Virus record (IMG/VR): IMGVR_UViG_2541047795_000004
Source of the DNA: a virus
Taxonomy: Duplodnaviria; Heunggongvirae; Uroviricota; Caudoviricetes
Direction: 5' to 3' (one strand)
DNA length: 44,950 nucleotides
The position numbers and the translations under genes are program-made. The notes below the pieces were generated by a model. The model made no database searches, was not told where the DNA came from, and was given only the letters and a program-made list of their open reading frames with translations. This document shows, in pieces, positions 6,672 to 23,180 of the stretch (positions are counted from its first letter, which is position 1; every line of letters starts with the position of its first letter).

Positions 6672-7160
6672 ATGTTGGATGTATTTACTCCATTGTTGAA
6701 ACTTTTTGCTAACGAGCCACTCGAAAGACTTATGTATACGATTATCATTTTTGGTCTCACTCTCTGGCTGATACCGAAAGAGTTTACTGTCGCATTCAAT
6801 GCTTATACTGAAATACCTTGGCTCTTTCAGATTATCGTTTTTGCCTTTTCTTTCGTGGTCGCCATTTCCTTCTCAAGATTGCGAGCACATATTCAAAAGC
6901 ATTATTCATTACTACCAGAGCAACGAGTATTGCTTCGTTTATCTGAGAAAGAAATCGCTGTATTTAAAGATTTCCTTAAAACAGGAAATCTTATTATCAC
7001 TTCTCCTTGCCGTAACCCGGTTATGAAAAAATTAGAACGGAAGGGCATCATTCAACATCAGAGTGATAGCGCAAACTGTTCTTATTATCTCGTCACCGAA
7101 AAATACTCCCATTTTATGAAGTTATTCTGGAACAGCAGGAGTAGACGTTTTAATCGTTAG
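6672..7160 (+). CDS. sieB: Superinfection exclusion protein B, 162 aa, membrane protein
   Basis: Sequence from MLDVFTPLLKLFANEPLERLMYTIIIFGLTLWLIPKEF with hydrophobic helices; the ORF-track N-terminal extension from 6549 is probably not translated. Confidence 0.85.
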   Translation: MLDVFTPLLKLFANEPLERLMYTIIIFGLTLWLIPKEFTVAFNAYTEIPWLFQIIVFAFSFVVAISFSRLRAHIQKHYSLLPEQRVLLRLSEKEIAVFKDFLKTGNLIITSPCRNPVMKKLERKGIIQHQSDSANCSYYLVTEKYSHFMKLFWNSRSRRFNR

Positions 7161-8982: not shown

Positions 8983-9153
8983 AGGTGAAAACAAATGGCT
9001 TCAAACTGGATAAAGCTCGAAGTTATTACGCCGGATAAGCCGGAAATATTCAGGCTTGCTGAGATTCTGAATATTGATCCAGATGCCGCATTAGGGAAAG
9101 TCATTCGCTTCTGGGCATGGGCGGATCAACAAATGATAGACGGTAACGCAGAG

Positions 9154-9174
9154 TGTAACGCTCGAGGCGTTACA
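9154..9174. repeat. 21-bp palindrome TGTAACGC-N5-GCGTTACA, copy 2
   Basis: Perfect 8-5-8 inverted repeat inside the replication gene; a GGTAACGC half-site lies at 9142-9149. Confidence 0.7.
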
Positions 9175-9361
9175 AAAAGTGCAATAGACCGTATCACTTT
9201 TATGGCTGGTTTTGCTGATGCGTTAATTCAGGTTGGATGGCTGGTCGAAAGTGATGGAGTGCTTTCACTACCAAACTTTGAGCGTCATAACGGAAAAAGC
9301 TCGAAAAAAACGGGCGGTTACAAACGAGAGAGTTACAAAAATACGCGAACTGAAGCGAAAA

Positions 9362-9382
9362 GGTAACGCTGCCAGCGTTACA
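9362..9382. repeat. 21-bp palindrome GTAACGC-N7-GCGTTAC, copy 3
   Basis: Same half-sites as copies 1 and 2; further GTTACAAA and GCGTTACC half-sites nearby (9317-9340, 9398-9406). Confidence 0.65.
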
Positions 9383-9790
9383 CAAACGGATCAAAAAGCG
9401 TTACCAGAGGAAGAGGAAGAGGAAGATATAAATACTGATCTCCCCCTAAATCCCCCTCGGCAAAAACGAGCGTCTAAACAATTCGAGCCGGAGGCCATTG
9501 CTCTGCCCGACTGGTTGCCAGAAACACTCTGGAATGAGTGGGTCCAGTTCAGGCAGGCATTGCGAAAACCGATTCGAACGGAGCAGGGCGCTAACGGGGC
9601 GATACGGGAACTGGAAAAATTCCGCCAGCAGGGTTTTACCCCTGAGCAGGTGATTCGACACAGCATCGCCAATGAATACCAGGGCTTGTTCGCGCCGAAA
9701 AGTGTTCGGCCTGAGACGTTGCTCCGACAGGTTAACACTGTCTCGTTTCCGGACAGTGCGATCCCGCCAGGCTTCAGGGGGTAACTGACC

Positions 9791-11300: not shown

Positions 11301-11724
11301 TATGGCAAAAGTATTAACACAGGAAGAGCGCGAAAAAATTAAAGGGCAGATTGTTGATCTCGTACGCCAGAGTGAGCGAGAGACGTTACGACAACTGGAA
11401 GCTAAAACAGGGGCAACCAGATATCTGATAAGTATTCTCGCCAAAGAGCTGGTTTCGAGTGGTTACGTATACAACTCTGGCTACGGGTTATTCCCGTCTG
11501 AGCAGGCACGTAAAGACTGGCAAAACGCCAGCAAAAAACTCTCGAGTGCAAAGTCGAAGGAACCGGTTATGGTTGATCCTGACCTTATCTGCTCGTTATC
11601 TGACGGAGAAATACGTCGTTACGACAGGCGTCATAATATAATTTGTAGTGAGTGCCGTAAAAGAGAAGTTATGCAGCGTGTACTGGCGTTTTATCGGGGA
11701 AACTTTCAAGAGGTGCTGTTGTGA
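11301..11724 (+). CDS. Hypothetical phage protein, 141 aa
   Basis: ATG at 11301 preceded by GGGGAGGG; C-terminal Cys pair CSEC. Confidence 0.55.
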
Positions 11725-11884
11725 GCCAAATTAATAATCGGAACTTGGTGAAGTGAAAGAGAAAGCATAACCCAAATCTGAATAATTAAATTCAGCACTG
11801 TGAATAAAATAGAGTCCTTAACCGGAGGAATTCCTGCACTCTCAAATCATCAGGAGGCCGCCCGAAAAGGCGGTGGAGATAATA

Positions 11885-12403
11885 ATGGAAATAACTAAAG
11901 AACGATTATTGGAAATAGCAAATCTTAGTGATGGGGCATTAAGTGATGGGAGAATTATTTCTCCTGATGCTTATGAATCAGTTACAAGTATAGAAATAAT
12001 AACGATGGCTAGGATGCTTCTTGCGCGATTCAAAAAAGAATATAAAAAACAGGTAGATAGCAATGCTAATATATATGATATTTTGGACGGTTGGGGAGCC
12101 TGGGCTGTAGCTGAAAATAGTTCTATTGATTGGCAGGAAATAGCTGATAAATATAAAAATGTTGTTCCTCATGGTAAAAAATCACGTCGTCAGTGCAGCA
12201 ATGATGAAGGGGGTATAATTGATACCTGCATGTTGAGGCTTAAACAATATAGGATAGATGACTATGAGTTAATTATCGCTCATTTTGTTATGGGAGTTTC
12301 ATTGCGTTGTTTAGCTAAGATAAACGAATGTTCAGATGGTAAAATAAGGAAAAAAATGCAAATGGCAATGGGATTTATTGCAGGTTGTATCTATTACCGT
12401 TGA
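11885..12403 (+). CDS. Q-like antiterminator paralog (QuuD/phage-82-type resemblance), AT-rich
   Basis: WGAW motif followed by a Cys-containing segment and a C-terminal helix, parallel to the Q gene at 16732; GGTGGAG Shine-Dalgarno before the ATG at 11885. Confidence 0.45.
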   Translation: MEITKERLLEIANLSDGALSDGRIISPDAYESVTSIEIITMARMLLARFKKEYKKQVDSNANIYDILDGWGAWAVAENSSIDWQEIADKYKNVVPHGKKSRRQCSNDEGGIIDTCMLRLKQYRIDDYELIIAHFVMGVSLRCLAKINECSDGKIRKKMQMAMGFIAGCIYYR

Positions 12404-12433
12404 TTTTTTAAGGCGAGTTTCTCTCGCCTTAAA

Positions 12434-13867
12434 TTAACTACAGTAACTATTGATTAAGTGAGAACTGAGCCAAGAGGTAATTGCATTCGTAGCATGTTCA
12501 TCAAGCATTGAGAATCCTAATATGATCATTATAAATGAAATCAGCAAAGTCAGAATCACAACGAATGTGGCTATAATCTGATAAGCTTTGTATGCTTCTC
12601 TTAATGGTGTGACTGCAAGATTCTCATAGTCAGTATCATCAAGAAAACCATATAGTTTATCTCTCCAGACTAGCCTAGTATTATCAAGTATCTTAAAGTA
12701 ATTTTTATTTATGAAGAGAGTTGTAACCTGAGATATAAAAATATATATAGATAACGCGAAGAACATATATGGGAATATGTTATTGGTTATATTAATCTTT
12801 GATGCGTCTAGCGCATATTTTATTGCAAATAGACTTATAACCAGAGCCAGATCTTTCCAAAGAGCGGATGTGATGTCTTTAGACTGACTTATTATTTTTT
12901 GCGTGTCTTCAGCTAAGGTTTTCCTTAGATCGGACAGAGATTTAATAGTCTCTCTGCTGCTAGCGCGAATGTGGGCCTTATATAGTAATTTTGCTGACTC
13001 AAAGGCCATAGGGAGTTTTTTTGGTAAACCCTCACAGAAGGATACATACTCTGGCCATTCTCGTGCTAACTCACTTGTGAAGAAAGTATGTTTGAGTTCA
13101 ATCTCATTGCCCTCAATAAAGATCCAGTTTATTACAGTTTGTAAAACTGAATAGTCGGAAAGCAGAATGTCTGGATCTCCATAAATTAATTTTTTTGGTG
13201 GCTTTCCAGTTAAACAAATTGATTTCTTTTCATCTGCTAATAATTCATTAACGAGAGTGCGACAAAGCATATTGCAGGAAACTTGTAACCATTTTTTGAA
13301 AAAGTTGTCCTCTGCCTCAGGCATTTTATAAAGTACCCAAGGAGCTATATCAGATGCAGGCATGAACTCACTAGAATAGAATTTAACGTAGCTCTGTAAA
13401 TTGATTGAAGTTCGTACGGTTTCATTAGATTCAATTTTTTCTGGAGCATGGTTCCATGGCTCAACAGAATATCCTAAAGTTTCAAATCCATGTTTCAAAC
13501 CGAGAATATTCACTTTATTGGTTATTGATACTAAATCATCATTGTGTAGAAAAACATTCCACCCTTCGAGCGTAAAAATATACCTGTTATTTTCGAATGC
13601 AATGCATTTTAGCGTAATGTTAAGTTTATCACCTTCACTGCATGACGATGGTTTTACTTCATCATTACAGTCATCTTTAACAGTAATTTCAATCCAATTT
13701 GGTACGTTTTCGTAAACGTACTGCCAAAGAATGAGTGCATCTTTGTCCATTTTGGCAGAAATTAGAACGCGCGCAGAATCATTTTTTATTGATTCTGATG
13801 CCAAAAATTCAGGGTCTTTCCTTGACGCCTGTATAGACTCATCGATTTTTTGAAGTATCGATGTCAT
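12434..13867 (-). CDS. Cassette gene B: uncharacterised 477-aa protein, large soluble N-terminal domain plus C-terminal transmembrane helices
   Basis: Hydrophobic helices IFPYMFFALSIYIFISQVTTLFI and IIATFVVILTLLISFIMIILGFSML near the C-terminus; GAGGA Shine-Dalgarno 10 nt before the ATG at 13867; overlaps gene A by 29 nt; AT-rich. Confidence 0.7.
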   Translation of the reverse strand: MTSILQKIDESIQASRKDPEFLASESIKNDSARVLISAKMDKDALILWQYVYENVPNWIEITVKDDCNDEVKPSSCSEGDKLNITLKCIAFENNRYIFTLEGWNVFLHNDDLVSITNKVNILGLKHGFETLGYSVEPWNHAPEKIESNETVRTSINLQSYVKFYSSEFMPASDIAPWVLYKMPEAEDNFFKKWLQVSCNMLCRTLVNELLADEKKSICLTGKPPKKLIYGDPDILLSDYSVLQTVINWIFIEGNEIELKHTFFTSELAREWPEYVSFCEGLPKKLPMAFESAKLLYKAHIRASSRETIKSLSDLRKTLAEDTQKIISQSKDITSALWKDLALVISLFAIKYALDASKINITNNIFPYMFFALSIYIFISQVTTLFINKNYFKILDNTRLVWRDKLYGFLDDTDYENLAVTPLREAYKAYQIIATFVVILTLLISFIMIILGFSMLDEHATNAITSWLSSHLINSYCS

Positions 13868-14897
13868 CAGTAATAATCCTCGCAGTAGTAACAATAATTT
13901 GTTTTCGCCCATCATCTAAGTTTCTTATTTCTGGACGGTCATCTTCATTATAACTAATTACTACACTTTCTGCAGTTTCAATTTTTCGTCTTGGTGGTTT
14001 ATGAATGCCATCTGCTTTTATAGTAAAGGATTCGCCTTCAATACCAGCATTTTTTGTTTGAGTTTTGAATGTGTTGAGAATTGGTGATTTTTCATCTAAC
14101 GGCCCAAAAATGCTGGTCAATAACGGAGAAGCATCTTCAGGATTATATTCGAAATCAGCTCTGCTTAAAACTTCATATATTTTATTTACGCCGCTTTTTT
14201 GAATTGACTCTGGCAATAATTCTTTATGCCTTTTGAAGGTTATTTTCAGCGCATCAATAAGCTTATTGCAAAGTTCAATTTCAGAGTTGACTCTTTTAAC
14301 ATTTAAGAAGCCTTTAAAATATCCTGAAATATTGGTTCTTTTACTCCTGTCTTTTACAATAACTTTCCCGCCTTTCCCACTTGGATCAAGTTGAATTAAC
14401 GCTATTTTTTGCATTGCCTCAGCTTTTTTTACGAAAGTTTCATGAAATCTTTCTAAAGTAGGCATTTGTTCTTCAGATAACTTTTCGTCAAGAACATAAC
14501 GAACCACATCTTCATTATCGTATTTTATAATTGCATAGAATTTTTCCTTATCTGAAACCAATTCAAATAAGAAAAAGCATCCCATACTCGTGTTACCGCT
14601 AGAATGGTGTGACTGAAAATCACTGGCCAGTAGCTTCGATTGTTCTGTAAAACAATTAGCTTCAGCATCTGCTTTATCTCTAATGATACGCAGGATTCTT
14701 TCGGTATTTGAATTCTCCAGAAAAGTGAAAAGATTTCCTTTCAGTGAAGATTTGATACGTTCAAGAAAAAAATCCACATGCTGAACTGGTTTTATTTCTT
14801 TGAGAAGTGTCGGTGCTTCAAGATTCTTACCTACAACGTGAAAGATCATTTTATTAATGACTAAATTTTGTACGTCTTGTTCAGAAAGGAAACTCAT
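13839..14897 (-). CDS. Cassette gene A: uncharacterised 352-aa cytoplasmic protein, tentative weak resemblance to NA37/YejK-type nucleoid-associated proteins
   Basis: GGAG Shine-Dalgarno before the ATG at 14897; no transmembrane segment; the NA37 resemblance is by eye only and unverified. Confidence 0.7.
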   Translation of the reverse strand: MSFLSEQDVQNLVINKMIFHVVGKNLEAPTLLKEIKPVQHVDFFLERIKSSLKGNLFTFLENSNTERILRIIRDKADAEANCFTEQSKLLASDFQSHHSSGNTSMGCFFLFELVSDKEKFYAIIKYDNEDVVRYVLDEKLSEEQMPTLERFHETFVKKAEAMQKIALIQLDPSGKGGKVIVKDRSKRTNISGYFKGFLNVKRVNSEIELCNKLIDALKITFKRHKELLPESIQKSGVNKIYEVLSRADFEYNPEDASPLLTSIFGPLDEKSPILNTFKTQTKNAGIEGESFTIKADGIHKPPRRKIETAESVVISYNEDDRPEIRNLDDGRKQIIVTTARIITDDIDTSKNR

Positions 14898-15226
14898 CCT
14901 GACTCCATAATCAAGCAGATTAGAACTATGACTAGTCTAGTATATGCATCTTTTGGTGCGTACGCAAAAGTTCTTAAACTCAAAATGTTATCGCGGATAG
15001 ATCTTTGTAGAGTCAGTGATTGGCGCAGGTAGGTGGTAACAGCAGACAAATAGCTGCGGATACTTGAGGCTATCTGCCTCGGGCATGAACATCAAAGGCA
15101 GATAGAGAAAAGCCCCAGTTAACATTACGCATCCGGCAAGACGCTTAACATTAATCTGAGGCCAATTTCATGCTTTGCACATGTAGGTTAGCCTCTTACG
15201 TGCCGAAAGGCAAGGAGAAGCAGGCT

Positions 15227-15382
15227 ATGAAGCAGCAAAAGGCGATGTTAGTCGCCCTGATCGTCATCTGTTTAACCGTTATAGTGACGGTACTGGTAAC
15301 GAGGAAAGACCTCTGCGAGGTACGAATCCGAACCGACCAGACGGAGGTCGCTGTCTTCACAGCTTACGAACTTGGGGAGTAA
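15227..15382 (+). CDS. hok: Hok/Gef-family type I toxin, 51 aa
   Basis: MKQQKAMLVALIVICLTVIVTVLVTRKDLCEVRIRTDQTEVAVFTAYE is a Hok-family sequence with one transmembrane helix; a 7-bp stem-loop follows at about 15389-15407. Confidence 0.8.
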   Translation: MKQQKAMLVALIVICLTVIVTVLVTRKDLCEVRIRTDQTEVAVFTAYELGE

Positions 15383-16445: not shown

Positions 16446-16735
16446 TGGTGGATTTACGTAAAGCGGCGCGGGGGCAGATGTGCACCGTCAGAATTCCTGG
16501 CTACTGCAATCACGATCCGGAAACGTCTGTGCTGGCGCATTACCGACTGGCGGGAACGTGCGGAACAGCGACAAAACCACACAATATGCAGGCGGCGATT
16601 GCCTGTAGCTCATGCCACGATCTAATCGACGGGCGGGTAAAAACCATCGATTACACCAAAGAAGAATTACGCCTGATGCATGCAGAAGGTGTTCTTCGCA
16701 CACAAGAAATCTGGAGAAAGGAGGGATATTTATGA
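16445..16735 (+). CDS. YbcO-like Cys-rich putative nuclease (DUF1364-like), 96 aa
   Basis: Cys pattern C..C....C...CSSCHD and size characteristic of nin-region YbcO-type proteins. Confidence 0.55.
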   Translation: MVDLRKAARGQMCTVRIPGYCNHDPETSVLAHYRLAGTCGTATKPHNMQAAIACSSCHDLIDGRVKTIDYTKEELRLMHAEGVLRTQEIWRKEGYL

Positions 16736-17274
16736 TTTACCCAACGAATACAGGAAAAAGCGGAGAACACCTTCGTCTCACCACGCTGGAAAGTGTCTGG
16801 ATTCAGGGAAAACTACGTATGTGGGGGCGCTGGTCGTATATTGGCGGCGGTAAGACGGGGAATATGTTCAACCAGTTGTTGGCCTCTAAAAAGCTGACAA
16901 AAACGGCAATTAACGAGGCGCTCCGGAGGATGAAAAAAGCAGGTCTGAACAAGTCTGAACTTGAGGCTTTTTTGCGGGATATGATTAACGGTAAGCAAAA
17001 GAGCTGGCTGGCGCATTGTACTGATGCAGAGGCGTTATGTATTGATCGGGTCATAAGTGAGGTGCTGGCAGAGCATCCAGGATTGATTAGCGTCCTTCGG
17101 CAACGGTATGAGGGGCGGGGGATGACCAAACGCAAAATGGCTGAATTGCTAAATGATGCACACCCAGAGTGGTGTTTTAGCACATGCGAAAAGCGAATTG
17201 CTAATTGGTTGGCCGTTGCTGAGTATGCGCTATACATTCCCATGCGAGAATCATTCGCTCAAAAAACGGCTTGA
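16732..17274 (+). CDS. Late-gene antiterminator Q, 180 aa
   Basis: ATG at 16732 with GGAGGG Shine-Dalgarno, overlapping the upstream stop; WGRW motif; immediately upstream of a promoter-like region, a terminator, tRNAs and the lysis cassette. Confidence 0.6.
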   Translation: MIYPTNTGKSGEHLRLTTLESVWIQGKLRMWGRWSYIGGGKTGNMFNQLLASKKLTKTAINEALRRMKKAGLNKSELEAFLRDMINGKQKSWLAHCTDAEALCIDRVISEVLAEHPGLISVLRQRYEGRGMTKRKMAELLNDAHPEWCFSTCEKRIANWLAVAEYALYIPMRESFAQKTA

Positions 17275-17627: not shown

Positions 17628-17703
<76 letters not shown>

Positions 17704-17706
17704 TAT

Positions 17707-17781
<75 letters not shown>

Positions 17782-21466: not shown

Positions 21467-22255
21467 ATGAGCGAGAAATTAAAGATAGTCTATCGCCCAT
21501 TACAAGAATTGTCACCGTATGCGCACAACGCCAGGACGCACAGTACTGAGCAGGTGGCACAACTGGTAGAAAGTATTAAGCAATTCGGCTGGACTAATCC
21601 GGTGCTGATTGACGAAAAGGGCGAAATTATTGCGGGTCACGGTCGTGTTATGGCGGCTGAAATGCTCAAAATGGATTCTGTTCCGGTCATTGTTCTGTCT
21701 GGCCTGACGGATGAGCAGAAAAAGGCGTACCGCCTGGCAGATAATCGCCTACCGATGAATGCTGGCTGGGATGAAGATCTATTGCGGATGGAGCTGTCGG
21801 ACCTAATCAATGCTGATTTTGATGTCTCCCTGACAGGCTTCGGCCCGACAGAAATTGATGAACTGTTGACGGATGTTTTGCCCGGTACAGGAAATAAGGA
21901 GGAGCCGTATACGACGAAAATTGATACGCCTGTTTATGAGCCGTCGGGCGGTAAACCGGATATCAGTGAACTGTACGACGATACGAAAACTCAGGAGCTG
22001 ATCAGCCGGATACGTTCGGCGTCCCTTGATCCTGATATTGAGAAATTCCTCCTGTGTGCGGCAGAACGTCACACGGTGTTTAATTTCAGCAGAATTGCGG
22101 ACTATTACGCTCATGCCCCCGCTGAAATTCAGTGCCTTTTCGAGGAGTCGGCGCTGGTGATCATTGATTATCAGCAGGCTATTGAAAATGGATTTGTCCG
22201 AATGACGCAGCGCATGGTGGCGATCATGCATAGCGGGGAGGAGGAATATGCGTGA
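21467..22255 (+). CDS. ynaK: ParB-like nuclease domain protein (full-length YnaK-like)
   Basis: N-terminal ParB/Srx-like motif (GHGRVMAA..., PVLIDEKGEIIAG); lies just upstream of the terminase genes. Confidence 0.7.
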   Translation: MSEKLKIVYRPLQELSPYAHNARTHSTEQVAQLVESIKQFGWTNPVLIDEKGEIIAGHGRVMAAEMLKMDSVPVIVLSGLTDEQKKAYRLADNRLPMNAGWDEDLLRMELSDLINADFDVSLTGFGPTEIDELLTDVLPGTGNKEEPYTTKIDTPVYEPSGGKPDISELYDDTKTQELISRIRSASLDPDIEKFLLCAAERHTVFNFSRIADYYAHAPAEIQCLFEESALVIIDYQQAIENGFVRMTQRMVAIMHSGEEEYA

Positions 22256-23180
22256 TGATTTTTGCGCCTTTATTCTGACTCACGGGCGACCGGACAAAGT
22301 TCTGACTTACCGGACGTTGCGTCGTGCTGGCTATACCGGGAAAATTTTTATCGTTGTTGATGATGAAGATAAGACACGGCATCAGTACATGGCTGAATTT
22401 GGTGAACAGGTGCTGGTATTTTCCAAAGCCGATATTGCCAGTCGTTTTGACGAAGCCGATAATTTTGGTGACCGCCGCTCAATTTTTTACGCCCGTAATG
22501 CCTGTTTCGACCTGGCAAAACTGGTCGGGTGTAAATACTTCATTCAGCTCGATGATGATTATCACGAGTTCCAGTTTCGGGTGGATCGCAACTATGACCA
22601 GGCCTATTTCCCGATAAGGAAACTGGATGCGATCCTTTCTGAAATGCTGGCGTATTACGAATCAATACCCGCGCTTTCCATCGCTATGTCGCAGGGCGGG
22701 GATTTTCTTGGTGACAATGGCGGCCATGCTTCGTGGGTGAAACGCAAGGCAATGAACAGCTTTATCTGTTCGGTTGATCGACCGTTCTCATTCATGGGGC
22801 GCATTAACGAGGATGTGAATACGTACACGAATCTCGGTCGCTGTGGTGAATTGTTTATGACGATCGGTGCTGTCCAGTTAGGGCAGAAACAGACGCAGAA
22901 AAACAGCGGCGGAATGACCGAGCTGTATCTGGATTCCGGAACCTACGTTAAAAGTTTTTACTCCGTCATGTATGCGCCGTCGTGCGTAAAAATCTCACTG
23001 ATGGGTGCCAGCCATAAACGCATTCACCATCAGGTCACCTGGAACAACGCTGCAGTAAAAATCCTTCACGAAAAATACAGGAAGAAGACACCCTGCATAT
23101 CAATGGGGGTGACAAATGATTCCGTATTCGAAAGTCGAGTCTCTGGCAGCGTGCCGGATGACTGCACAACAAATCGCTGA
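22248..23180 (+). CDS. Putative GT-A-fold glycosyltransferase-like protein, 310 aa
   Basis: N-terminal KIFIVVDDEDK and downstream FIQLDDDYHEF (DxD-like) motifs; overlaps the ParB-like stop by 8 nt. Fold assignment is by motif only. Confidence 0.5.
   Translation: MRDDFCAFILTHGRPDKVLTYRTLRRAGYTGKIFIVVDDEDKTRHQYMAEFGEQVLVFSKADIASRFDEADNFGDRRSIFYARNACFDLAKLVGCKYFIQLDDDYHEFQFRVDRNYDQAYFPIRKLDAILSEMLAYYESIPALSIAMSQGGDFLGDNGGHASWVKRKAMNSFICSVDRPFSFMGRINEDVNTYTNLGRCGELFMTIGAVQLGQKQTQKNSGGMTELYLDSGTYVKSFYSVMYAPSCVKISLMGASHKRIHHQVTWNNAAVKILHEKYRKKTPCISMGVTNDSVFESRVSGSVPDDCTTNR

Follow-up and report, generated by a model that had tools for sequence, protein, structure and literature searches.

What is the function of a pair of overlapping, AT-rich genes carried in an accessory slot of an Escherichia coli prophage? 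The question is raised by positions 12434-14897 of IMG/VR virus record IMGVR_UViG_2541047795_000004, a stretch of 44,950 nucleotides (nt) that was analysed at its full length and is referred to here as the window. The window corresponds to a Rac-family E. coli prophage located beside ttcA, and extends from the integrase to the tail-fibre genes. We propose, with a probability of roughly 0.7, that the two genes, hereafter A and B, constitute a prophage-borne abortive-infection defence system in which a nucleoid-associated protein (NAP) serves as the sensor and a membrane protein as the effector, in a manner reminiscent of type II PANGU. In PANGU systems, a chromosome-bound YejK-like NAP is freed when phage nucleases degrade the DNA, and goes on to bind an effector and activate it (Li et al., bioRxiv 10.64898/2026.04.06.716658). 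Our proposal builds directly on the identity and fold of protein A, the architecture of protein B, the obligatory A-then-B pairing of their genes, and the carriage of the pair on mobile elements and in defence neighbourhoods; a defence function of this particular cassette is probable. The two genes are as follows:

13839-14897, minus strand: gene A, 352 amino acids (aa), ATG start, RefSeq WP_001586997.1; putative sensor
12434-13867, minus strand: gene B, 477 aa, membrane protein of an unnamed family, RefSeq WP_001586996.1; putative effector

Both open reading frames (ORFs) are present and overlap on the minus strand as reported in a preliminary description of this DNA. The longest ORF of gene B spans 12434-13915 (493 aa) and the RefSeq start lies at 13867; the resulting 477-aa form is supported by the conservation of its N-terminus, MTSILxKI, in the family alignment.

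Protein A is a diverged YejK-type nucleoid-associated protein

Protein A matches the Pfam family NA37 (PF04245) with an E-value of 1.2e-12 and 48.3 bits (cut-off, 24.6). The match spans residues 18-335 of A and positions 1-316 of the 325 positions of the profile, and PF04245 is likewise present in 78 of the 79 clusters of A homologues. The AlphaFold2 (AF2) model of A (predicted local distance difference test [pLDDT] score, 85.4) has a single significant fold match in the PDB, namely E. coli YejK (9be2; E 1.3e-7, probability 1.00). The structural alignment comprises 356 columns at about 15% identity with a TM-score of only 0.41, a low value that we attribute to apparently differing domain orientations in the two structures. 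Since the NA37 match is full-length and YejK is the sole significant fold match, we consider A to be a diverged YejK-type NAP, and the resemblance to NA37/YejK proteins that the preliminary description had guessed at by eye is thus borne out. A basic stretch located at approximately residues 181-203 is invariant or nearly so throughout the A family (D183, R184, S185 and R202 are invariant) and provides the sole hint in the sequence at a putative non-specific binding of long double-stranded DNA.

Searches of PADLOC, NCBIfam and PHROGs returned only phrog_1974, a family of unknown function, for protein A. The gene has been singled out on computational grounds: Table S10 of the DefensePredictor study, which covers predictions for 3,000 E. 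coli strains, names WP_001586997.1 (that is, exactly protein A; contig NZ_JSGY01000132.1) as a 'Predicted novel defense gene' with a mean log-odds of 8.4, the strict log-odds cut-off of the method being 4 (Science 2026, PMC13092281).

Protein B combines a large soluble domain with C-terminal membrane helices

Protein B belongs to a large family, an HMM (hidden Markov model) scan of 1.84 billion representative proteins having identified at least 663 representatives at 50% identity, nearly all of them 440-530 aa in length. No match above cut-off was found for B in Pfam, PADLOC, NCBIfam or PHROGs, and the PDB contains no relative of this protein by sequence, nor by fold beyond generic helical bundles. 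A sub-threshold hit to Saf_2TM (E 0.044; 14 bits, cut-off 29.5) is confined to 34 residues within one of the hydrophobic helices and was judged to be compositional.

The AF2 model of B (pLDDT 87.2) consists of an alpha/beta domain (residues ~1-230) followed by a helical region (232-302) and four very long helices (305-355, 364-404, 411-454 and 457-476). Family-averaged hydropathy reveals two strong membrane helices at approximately 365-387 and 430-455, and a weaker one at approximately 337-356. The strong hydrophobic helices are conserved across the family, and the membrane helices bracket a conserved loop carrying the motif W-R-x-K-L-Y-G-F-L-D-D. Model and hydropathy thus agree with the earlier suggestion that B has a soluble N-terminal domain and at least two transmembrane helices at its C-terminus, and the charge distribution along the protein fits a predicted N-in topology. 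The most conserved part of B is the predicted cytoplasmic helical core (~231-335), which contains the invariant residues E257, H260, E266, R269, W271, H299 and R315 and the motifs ELKHTF..ELAREW and LYKAHIR..LSDLRK. Acidity is highest in the N-terminal 150 residues (family mean net charge, -9), which are among the less conserved parts of the protein; residues 1-335 taken together have an isoelectric point of 5.2 and a net charge of -10, with a family range of -20 to +2.

Genes A and B form an obligatory and horizontally mobile unit

Scanning one genome per species yielded 66 loci distributed among Enterobacterales, Pseudomonas, methanotrophs, Rhizobiales, Sphingomonadales, Acetobacteraceae, beta-proteobacteria and one Terriglobus. 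In every one of them, B is immediately preceded on the same strand by an A-family gene, and the two frames overlap in 65 of the 66 loci, the B frame being truncated in the remaining one. Over the 66 loci, the identity of A to its window counterpart rises and falls with that of B (r = 0.89), A being more conserved than B in all but one (65/66). Clustering of the homologues at 90% identity gave 101 clusters for B and 79 for A, drawn from the same taxa and in many cases from contigs of equal length. The A-B pair is an obligatory unit and one that is horizontally mobile.

The junction between the two genes is organized as follows:

13839-13881, minus strand: A/B junction, with GAGGA (13881-13877), the start codon of B (13867-13865) and the stop codon of A (13841-13839)

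Direct reading of the junction places GAGGA nine nt upstream of the ATG of B and gives an overlap of 29 nt, both features being present as first described; the Enterobacterales loci display the same 29-nt overlap. This overlap is a candidate for translational coupling of B to A.

Relatives of the pair are carried by mobile elements and neighbour defence genes

Wherever the exact protein B of the window occurs, its gene occupies the same slot of a Rac-type prophage. A 42%-identical variant from E. coli and Citrobacter occupies a different setting: at two chromosomal sites, it comes first among the genes that follow a P4-type integrase. Such an integrase lies directly upstream in all six Enterobacterales loci of our first sample. 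Downstream of the pair, three of these six loci carry the Septu genes ptuA and ptuB (PtuA/PtuB), which abut B in L005 and L010 and lie about 3 kb away in L004. Other neighbours within 6 kb of the pair in the sampled loci include N6_Mtase/ResIII genes, OLD-type ATPases and capP/capH; patatin and RES proteins are likewise among the neighbours. In a Sphingomonas locus (L086, 12794-17096), the A-B pair lies next to genes for an RNase_T protein, three unknown proteins, a Multi_ubiq protein and a DUF6791-ThiF fusion; the Multi_ubiq/ThiF cluster resembles ubiquitin-like conjugation defence systems.

Relatives of the pair are also present on ten plasmids and in a sequenced phage. A DNA-level search of sequenced phages returned no match to the cassette, and at the protein level one distant phage-borne pair was found, in the temperate Thiobacimonas phage vB_ThpS-P1 (L091, KT381864.1; 437-3011), where it lies beside a Cro/CI gene. 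The A gene of this phage (gp052) is annotated from an internal start; its full 386-aa frame matches positions 3-341 of the A profile with an E-value of 3e-44. The neighbourhood analysis of homologues advocated in the preliminary description hence places them in prophages, integrase-proximal islands and plasmids, and beside Septu or restriction-modification genes, in support of its interpretation.

A distant B relative was also noted on NZ_CP044051.1, an IncHI2A conjugative resistance plasmid of Klebsiella variicola (L092, 6001-7194), where the 5' side of the gene is cut by IS26. No A-family gene is listed upstream of it in the plasmid gene tables, which are incomplete.

The cassette occupies a variable slot in a Rac-family prophage

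The searched 2.7-kb stretch at 12300-15000 is 100% identical in E. coli Ecol_316 and other strains, and the gene map of the window was taken over from the annotation of Ecol_316. Protein A is encoded by 30 of 5,426 complete E. coli genomes. The immediate surroundings of the cassette comprise the following features:

11873-12403, plus strand: Q-family antiterminator gene (Pfam Phage_antitermQ, E 1.3e-33), G+C 0.347, tail-to-tail with B
12410-12430, no strand assigned: inverted repeat, perfect over 8 bp and G+C-rich, AAGGCGAG, loop TTTCT, CTCGCCTT
14898-15057, minus strand: upstream non-coding region of A, with a putative promoter and a GGAG Shine-Dalgarno sequence at 14906-14903 (by eye)
14967-14939, minus strand: putative promoter of A (by eye), TTGCGT at 14967-14962, 17-nt spacer, TATACT at 14944-14939
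15058-15382, plus strand: hokD-like hok/sok type I toxin-antitoxin locus, divergent from A; a neighbour lying outside the cassette

The base composition of the cassette deviates from that of the prophage backbone (G+C 0.345 versus 0.477 for the rest of the window), as is evident both from 500-base windows (0.334-0.360 over 12001-15000; 0.498-0.568 in the left flank and 0.476-0.516 in the right flank) and from third codon positions (0.25 in A and 0.31 in B, compared to 0.52-0.62 in neighbouring phage genes). The low G+C content pointed out in the preliminary description is therefore genuine, but its outline of a two-gene island has to be redrawn: since the Q-family gene also has a G+C content of 0.347, the AT-rich island consists of three genes. 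We regard this third gene as a syntenic neighbour and make no claim that it functionally belongs to the cassette. A similar arrangement is found in a Serratia prophage remnant (L084), where a 44%-identical A-B pair stands in the same convergent Q-B-A order next to a Q-family gene (11478-11834) whose product is 46% identical to that of the window; the tail-to-tail organization is therefore old. The window contains a second Q-like gene, of the DUF1133 type (16732-17274), located just before the transfer RNA (tRNA) and lysis genes, so that either of the two may be the functional late antiterminator.

The inverted repeat occupies the 30 nt that separate the stop codon of B from that of the convergent Q-family gene. 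Since no T-run follows the stem on either strand, the repeat does not qualify as a canonical intrinsic terminator and was not picked up by our terminator scan. On the plus strand, the repeat is preceded by a T-run and followed by an A-run, which is the reverse of a bidirectional terminator. Promoter and terminator scans gave no excess over shuffled sequence, and no hit in the upstream region of A. The putative promoter of A, which agrees with the consensus at 8 of 12 positions and falls below the scan threshold, would be weak.

Upstream of A, the hok gene that had been reported to adjoin the cassette proved to be part of a hokD-like hok/sok locus, with an Rfam sok match of 99.4 bits (RNA model start, 15058), an annotated Hok/Gef coding sequence, and 90-94% identity to hokD loci. 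The content of the slot upstream of hokD differs between strains. Strain PD4 carries relB-relE upstream of hokD-DUF1367-DUF1364-DUF1133, in agreement with the preliminary description, which places relBE in this slot of the Qin prophage, and CFT073 carries small unknown genes (slot comparison loci L088 and L089); with the A-B cassette found here, these identify the site as a variable accessory slot. Insertion sequences (ISs) have also reached the region. In H22 (NZ_CM146015.1), ISKpn26 splits the cassette region and A is split by the IS, and in L068 and L073 hok is separated from DUF1367 by a DDE_Tnp_1 element. L073 combines an intact B with a shortened A of 301 aa.

Other features of the prophage

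The remainder of the window contains the following features of interest:

1532-1928, minus/plus strands: RalR/RalA type I toxin-antitoxin locus and rcbA (Rfam RalA at 1557-1735, 225 bits), near the integrase/excisionase end
8995-9784, plus strand: gene preceding that of the ydaV-like ATPase; its counterpart in the identical prophage of Ecol_316 is annotated as frameshifted
17628-17781, plus strand: two tRNA genes (Thr and Gly according to Ecol_316), between the DUF1133 Q-like gene and the lysis cassette
21467-23180, plus strand: ParB/Srx N-terminal-domain gene overlapping a PF20691 (TAGT) gene, immediately upstream of the small terminase gene

Also present in the prophage are sieB (6672-7160), kilR and a ydaT-family gene; with RalR/RalA and rcbA, it thus holds several accessory or exclusion loci. 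The ParB/Srx-TAGT pair may have a role in DNA modification or anti-restriction. Because the gene at 8995-9784 is annotated as frameshifted in Ecol_316, the replication module may be defective.

Proposed mechanism of the A-B cassette

A plausible mode of action may be put forward by analogy with the behaviour published for Pag2A and Pag2B, the YejK-like NAP and the membrane partner of type II PANGU. In the E. coli example of this type, PANGU-Ecu, both genes are needed to reduce the titres of T4 by 3-4 logs, and protection takes the form of abortive infection; T4 denA mutants escape type II PANGU, a Pag2A-GFP (green fluorescent protein) fusion leaves the nucleoid upon T4 infection, and the N-terminal domain of Pag2B binds Pag2A with a dissociation constant of 19 nM (bioRxiv 10.64898/2026.04.06.716658). 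By extension, protein A would be made constitutively from its own weak promoter and, like YejK, would bind chromosomal DNA non-specifically and be held on the nucleoid. Protein B, translated from the mRNA of A, would reside in the inner membrane in an inactive form, both its N-terminal domain and its helical core being cytoplasmic. Degradation of the host chromosome by an infecting phage, T4 or another T-even phage, would deprive A of its DNA; the free protein could then bind the cytoplasmic part of B, and this binding would shift the transmembrane helices of B to a membrane-damaging state, bringing cell growth and phage production to a stop. This last step is conjectural even for the published type II PANGU systems, the authors of which state that the route by which Pag2B is activated and its action are unknown (bioRxiv 10.64898/2026.04.06.716658). 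The earlier suggestion that a DNA-associated sensor paired with a membrane-anchored partner would follow an abortive-infection logic coincides with the mechanism that has since been published for type II PANGU and which, by analogy, may apply here.

A more far-reaching version of this proposal, which we put forward tentatively and consider doubtful as a whole, is that A and B represent a third nucleoid-guard lineage that is independent of both tested pairs of a NAP and a transmembrane protein, with B a new membrane-damaging protein gated through its helical core, and with the cassette subject to Q-driven antisense silencing. In lambdoid prophages, rightward transcription upon induction through the tail-to-tail Q-family gene, whose stop codon lies 30 bp from that of B, would run antisense into the cassette, and could thereby silence a host-killing module while the prophage replicates.

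Weighing the proposal against its alternatives

Several points speak against the type II PANGU-like reading. No model of PADLOC (2023) was matched by A or B, and the overall validation rate of DefensePredictor predictions is 45% (PMC13092281). Among known pore formers, nothing more specific than generic helical bundles resembles B in structure. The conservation of this protein peaks in the core (231-335) and not in the acidic N-terminal 150 residues, and the mild acidity of its N-terminal part, although compatible with an acidic DNA-mimic domain, is that of an ordinary cytoplasmic domain and does not establish DNA mimicry. The sole tested pair of a NAP and a transmembrane protein that was compared to the cassette by sequence, DefensePredictor DS-1, shows no similarity to A or B. 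Finally, the association of the pair with defence contexts is of a qualitative nature, because the neighbourhood scans had no matched background control.

The same parts could also make up a defence system with a different trigger, in which A would directly recognize a phage product (phage DNA, an intermediate of replication or recombination, or a protein mimicking DNA) instead of reporting the loss of the host nucleoid, and B would be activated as in the RexA/RexB system of phage lambda. The lack of sequence similarity to DS-1 is in line with this possibility, as is the biology of the host element: a lambdoid prophage competes by nature with other temperate phages, which leave host DNA undegraded. 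T1 and T5, moreover, degrade host DNA and yet were not restricted by the tested PANGU systems, and the authors of that study infer polyphyletic origins for NAP operons (bioRxiv 10.64898/2026.04.06.716658), so that the trigger need not be common to all of them. We nonetheless consider a different trigger unlikely, given that A retains the full YejK fold and the conserved basic stretch at ~181-203, that the published type II example, likewise from E. coli, acts as a nucleoid-release sensor, and that no feature of the sequence is indicative of a specific phage ligand. A role in maintenance of the element, either as an addiction module in which A would neutralize a membrane toxin B, or as a DNA-membrane tether aiding the persistence of the element, is suggested by the location of the cassette between two toxin-antitoxin-type loci, by the presence of relBE in the same slot elsewhere, and by carriage on plasmids and islands. 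The few genomes with an IS-interrupted cassette or with a truncated A and an intact B may be read in the same sense, but they can also be turned around: the survival of B where A is truncated (L073) or split by an IS (H22) argues that B alone is not a lethal toxin, which counts against an addiction module. The published type II PANGU genes are not toxic either singly or together, and both are needed for protection (bioRxiv 10.64898/2026.04.06.716658). With Septu and restriction-modification genes among the neighbours of the pair, and with A scored as defensive by DefensePredictor, a maintenance function appears improbable.

The preliminary description had also raised a possible link to DUF4868, and hence to Kiwa, of which the cassette would be a diverged version with a KwaA-type membrane partner and a KwaB/DUF4868-type DNA-binding partner. 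All that speaks for this relationship is that, in general terms, a membrane protein and a DNA-binding protein occur together. Kiwa follows the reverse logic, the membrane protein being the sensor and the DNA-binding protein the effector, and KwaA is unlike B, with its 477 aa and large cytoplasmic domain. Since A has no DUF4868 match in Pfam at E <= 1 and neither protein matches any model of PADLOC, which is assumed to include Kiwa models, this link was abandoned and we give hardly any credence to a Kiwa-like system.

Should the type II PANGU-like reading be correct, the cassette would provide a natural, prophage-encoded E. coli case of a newly recognized mode of sensing infection, through a chromosome-binding reporter of host-genome destruction. 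It would further be added to the defence genes catalogued for the accessory slot that precedes hokD in Rac- and Qin-type prophages, and its rarity in E. coli could help explain strain-specific phage resistance. The central idea is no longer surprising to the specialist, and the interest that is left lies in the mechanism of the effector and in a possible self-silencing through the Q-family gene. In the former respect, the size of its family, a confidently predicted structure and a sharply conserved core make B a tractable model for the switch from sensor to effector.

Comparison with known systems

The closest well-defined relative of A is the housekeeping NAP of E. coli, YejK (NdpA; PDB 9be2), with which it has the Pfam family and the whole-length fold in common. 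The two proteins differ in that A, besides the low identity in the structural alignment, is carried on mobile elements, always accompanied by B, and restricted to a small minority of E. coli genomes.

Of the systems in which a sensor is paired with an effector, RexA/RexB of phage lambda is similar by functional analogy, as the preliminary description proposed: here too a prophage encodes two partners, a cytoplasmic sensor of the state of DNA and a membrane protein that the sensor is held to activate, so that infection is aborted. There is no homology between the two systems, and RexB is a small protein with four transmembrane helices, in contrast to B which carries a large cytoplasmic domain and two to three transmembrane helices. 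Type I PANGU, in which Pag1A is paired with the GRel toxSAS protein Pag1B, shares with the cassette the sensor family and the proposed trigger of NAP release, but its effector is a soluble pppGpp-synthesizing enzyme; B is a membrane protein and has no similarity to toxSAS proteins in Pfam.

A second E. coli system of comparable design, DS-1 (D390), is a validated defence system from the DefensePredictor study that consists of WP_000355468.1 (ZF-YejK) and WP_000150292.1 (Science 2026, PMC13092281). As in the cassette, the gene for an NA37/YejK-domain protein directly precedes that for a partner whose N-terminal part is soluble and whose C-terminal helices are hydrophobic. The NAP of DS-1 has an N-terminal zinc ribbon that A lacks, and DS-1B is 404 aa long compared to the 477 aa of B. 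Homology of A or B to the DS-1 proteins was sought and rejected: BLASTP E-values were 0.2 or above, hhalign probabilities were below 1%, and the bit scores of hmmsearch, run with the filters off and with profiles built from 219 sequences (B) and about 80 sequences (A), were negative.

The best fit is with type II PANGU, described as Pag2A, a YejK-like NAP, followed by Pag2B, which has an acidic 'DMK' DNA-mimic domain at its N-terminus and a transmembrane domain at its C-terminus; the search for such systems called for a NAP of at least 300 aa with an E-value below 1e-10 to the NdpA profile and a neighbouring gene less than 40 bp away (bioRxiv 10.64898/2026.04.06.716658). Protein A, at 352 aa, has an E-value of 1.2e-12, as determined with the Pfam NA37 model and not with the authors' HMM, and gene B is found on the same strand, overlapping A by 29 nt. 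Linkage to defence genes and mobile elements, another trait of type II PANGU, is seen qualitatively for the relatives of A-B. Two differences deserve mention. Judged on charge alone, the resemblance of the N-terminal domain of B to a 'DNA mimic' is weak, and the copy in the window sits in a prophage accessory slot and not in a classical defence island. The likeness, which relates to the described architecture and not to the sequences of Pag2A and Pag2B, otherwise extends to the whole layout, a two-gene operon with the NAP first and a partner that is soluble at its N-terminus and membrane-embedded at its C-terminus, occurring in E. coli and across phyla and linked to defence. The contig listed for protein A in Table S10 (NZ_JSGY01000132.1) may be one of the 'upec-NNN' assemblies, which would fit the 'Escherichia coli upec' of PANGU-Ecu. 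The kind of system to which the cassette would belong has thus already been named, and gene A has already been flagged computationally; the sequences are unrelated to those of DS-1, and the effector family of B is uncharacterized. The original statement that the pair was uncharacterized and matched no named defence system is thereby superseded, since a named class, type II PANGU, now fits the pair by its architecture.

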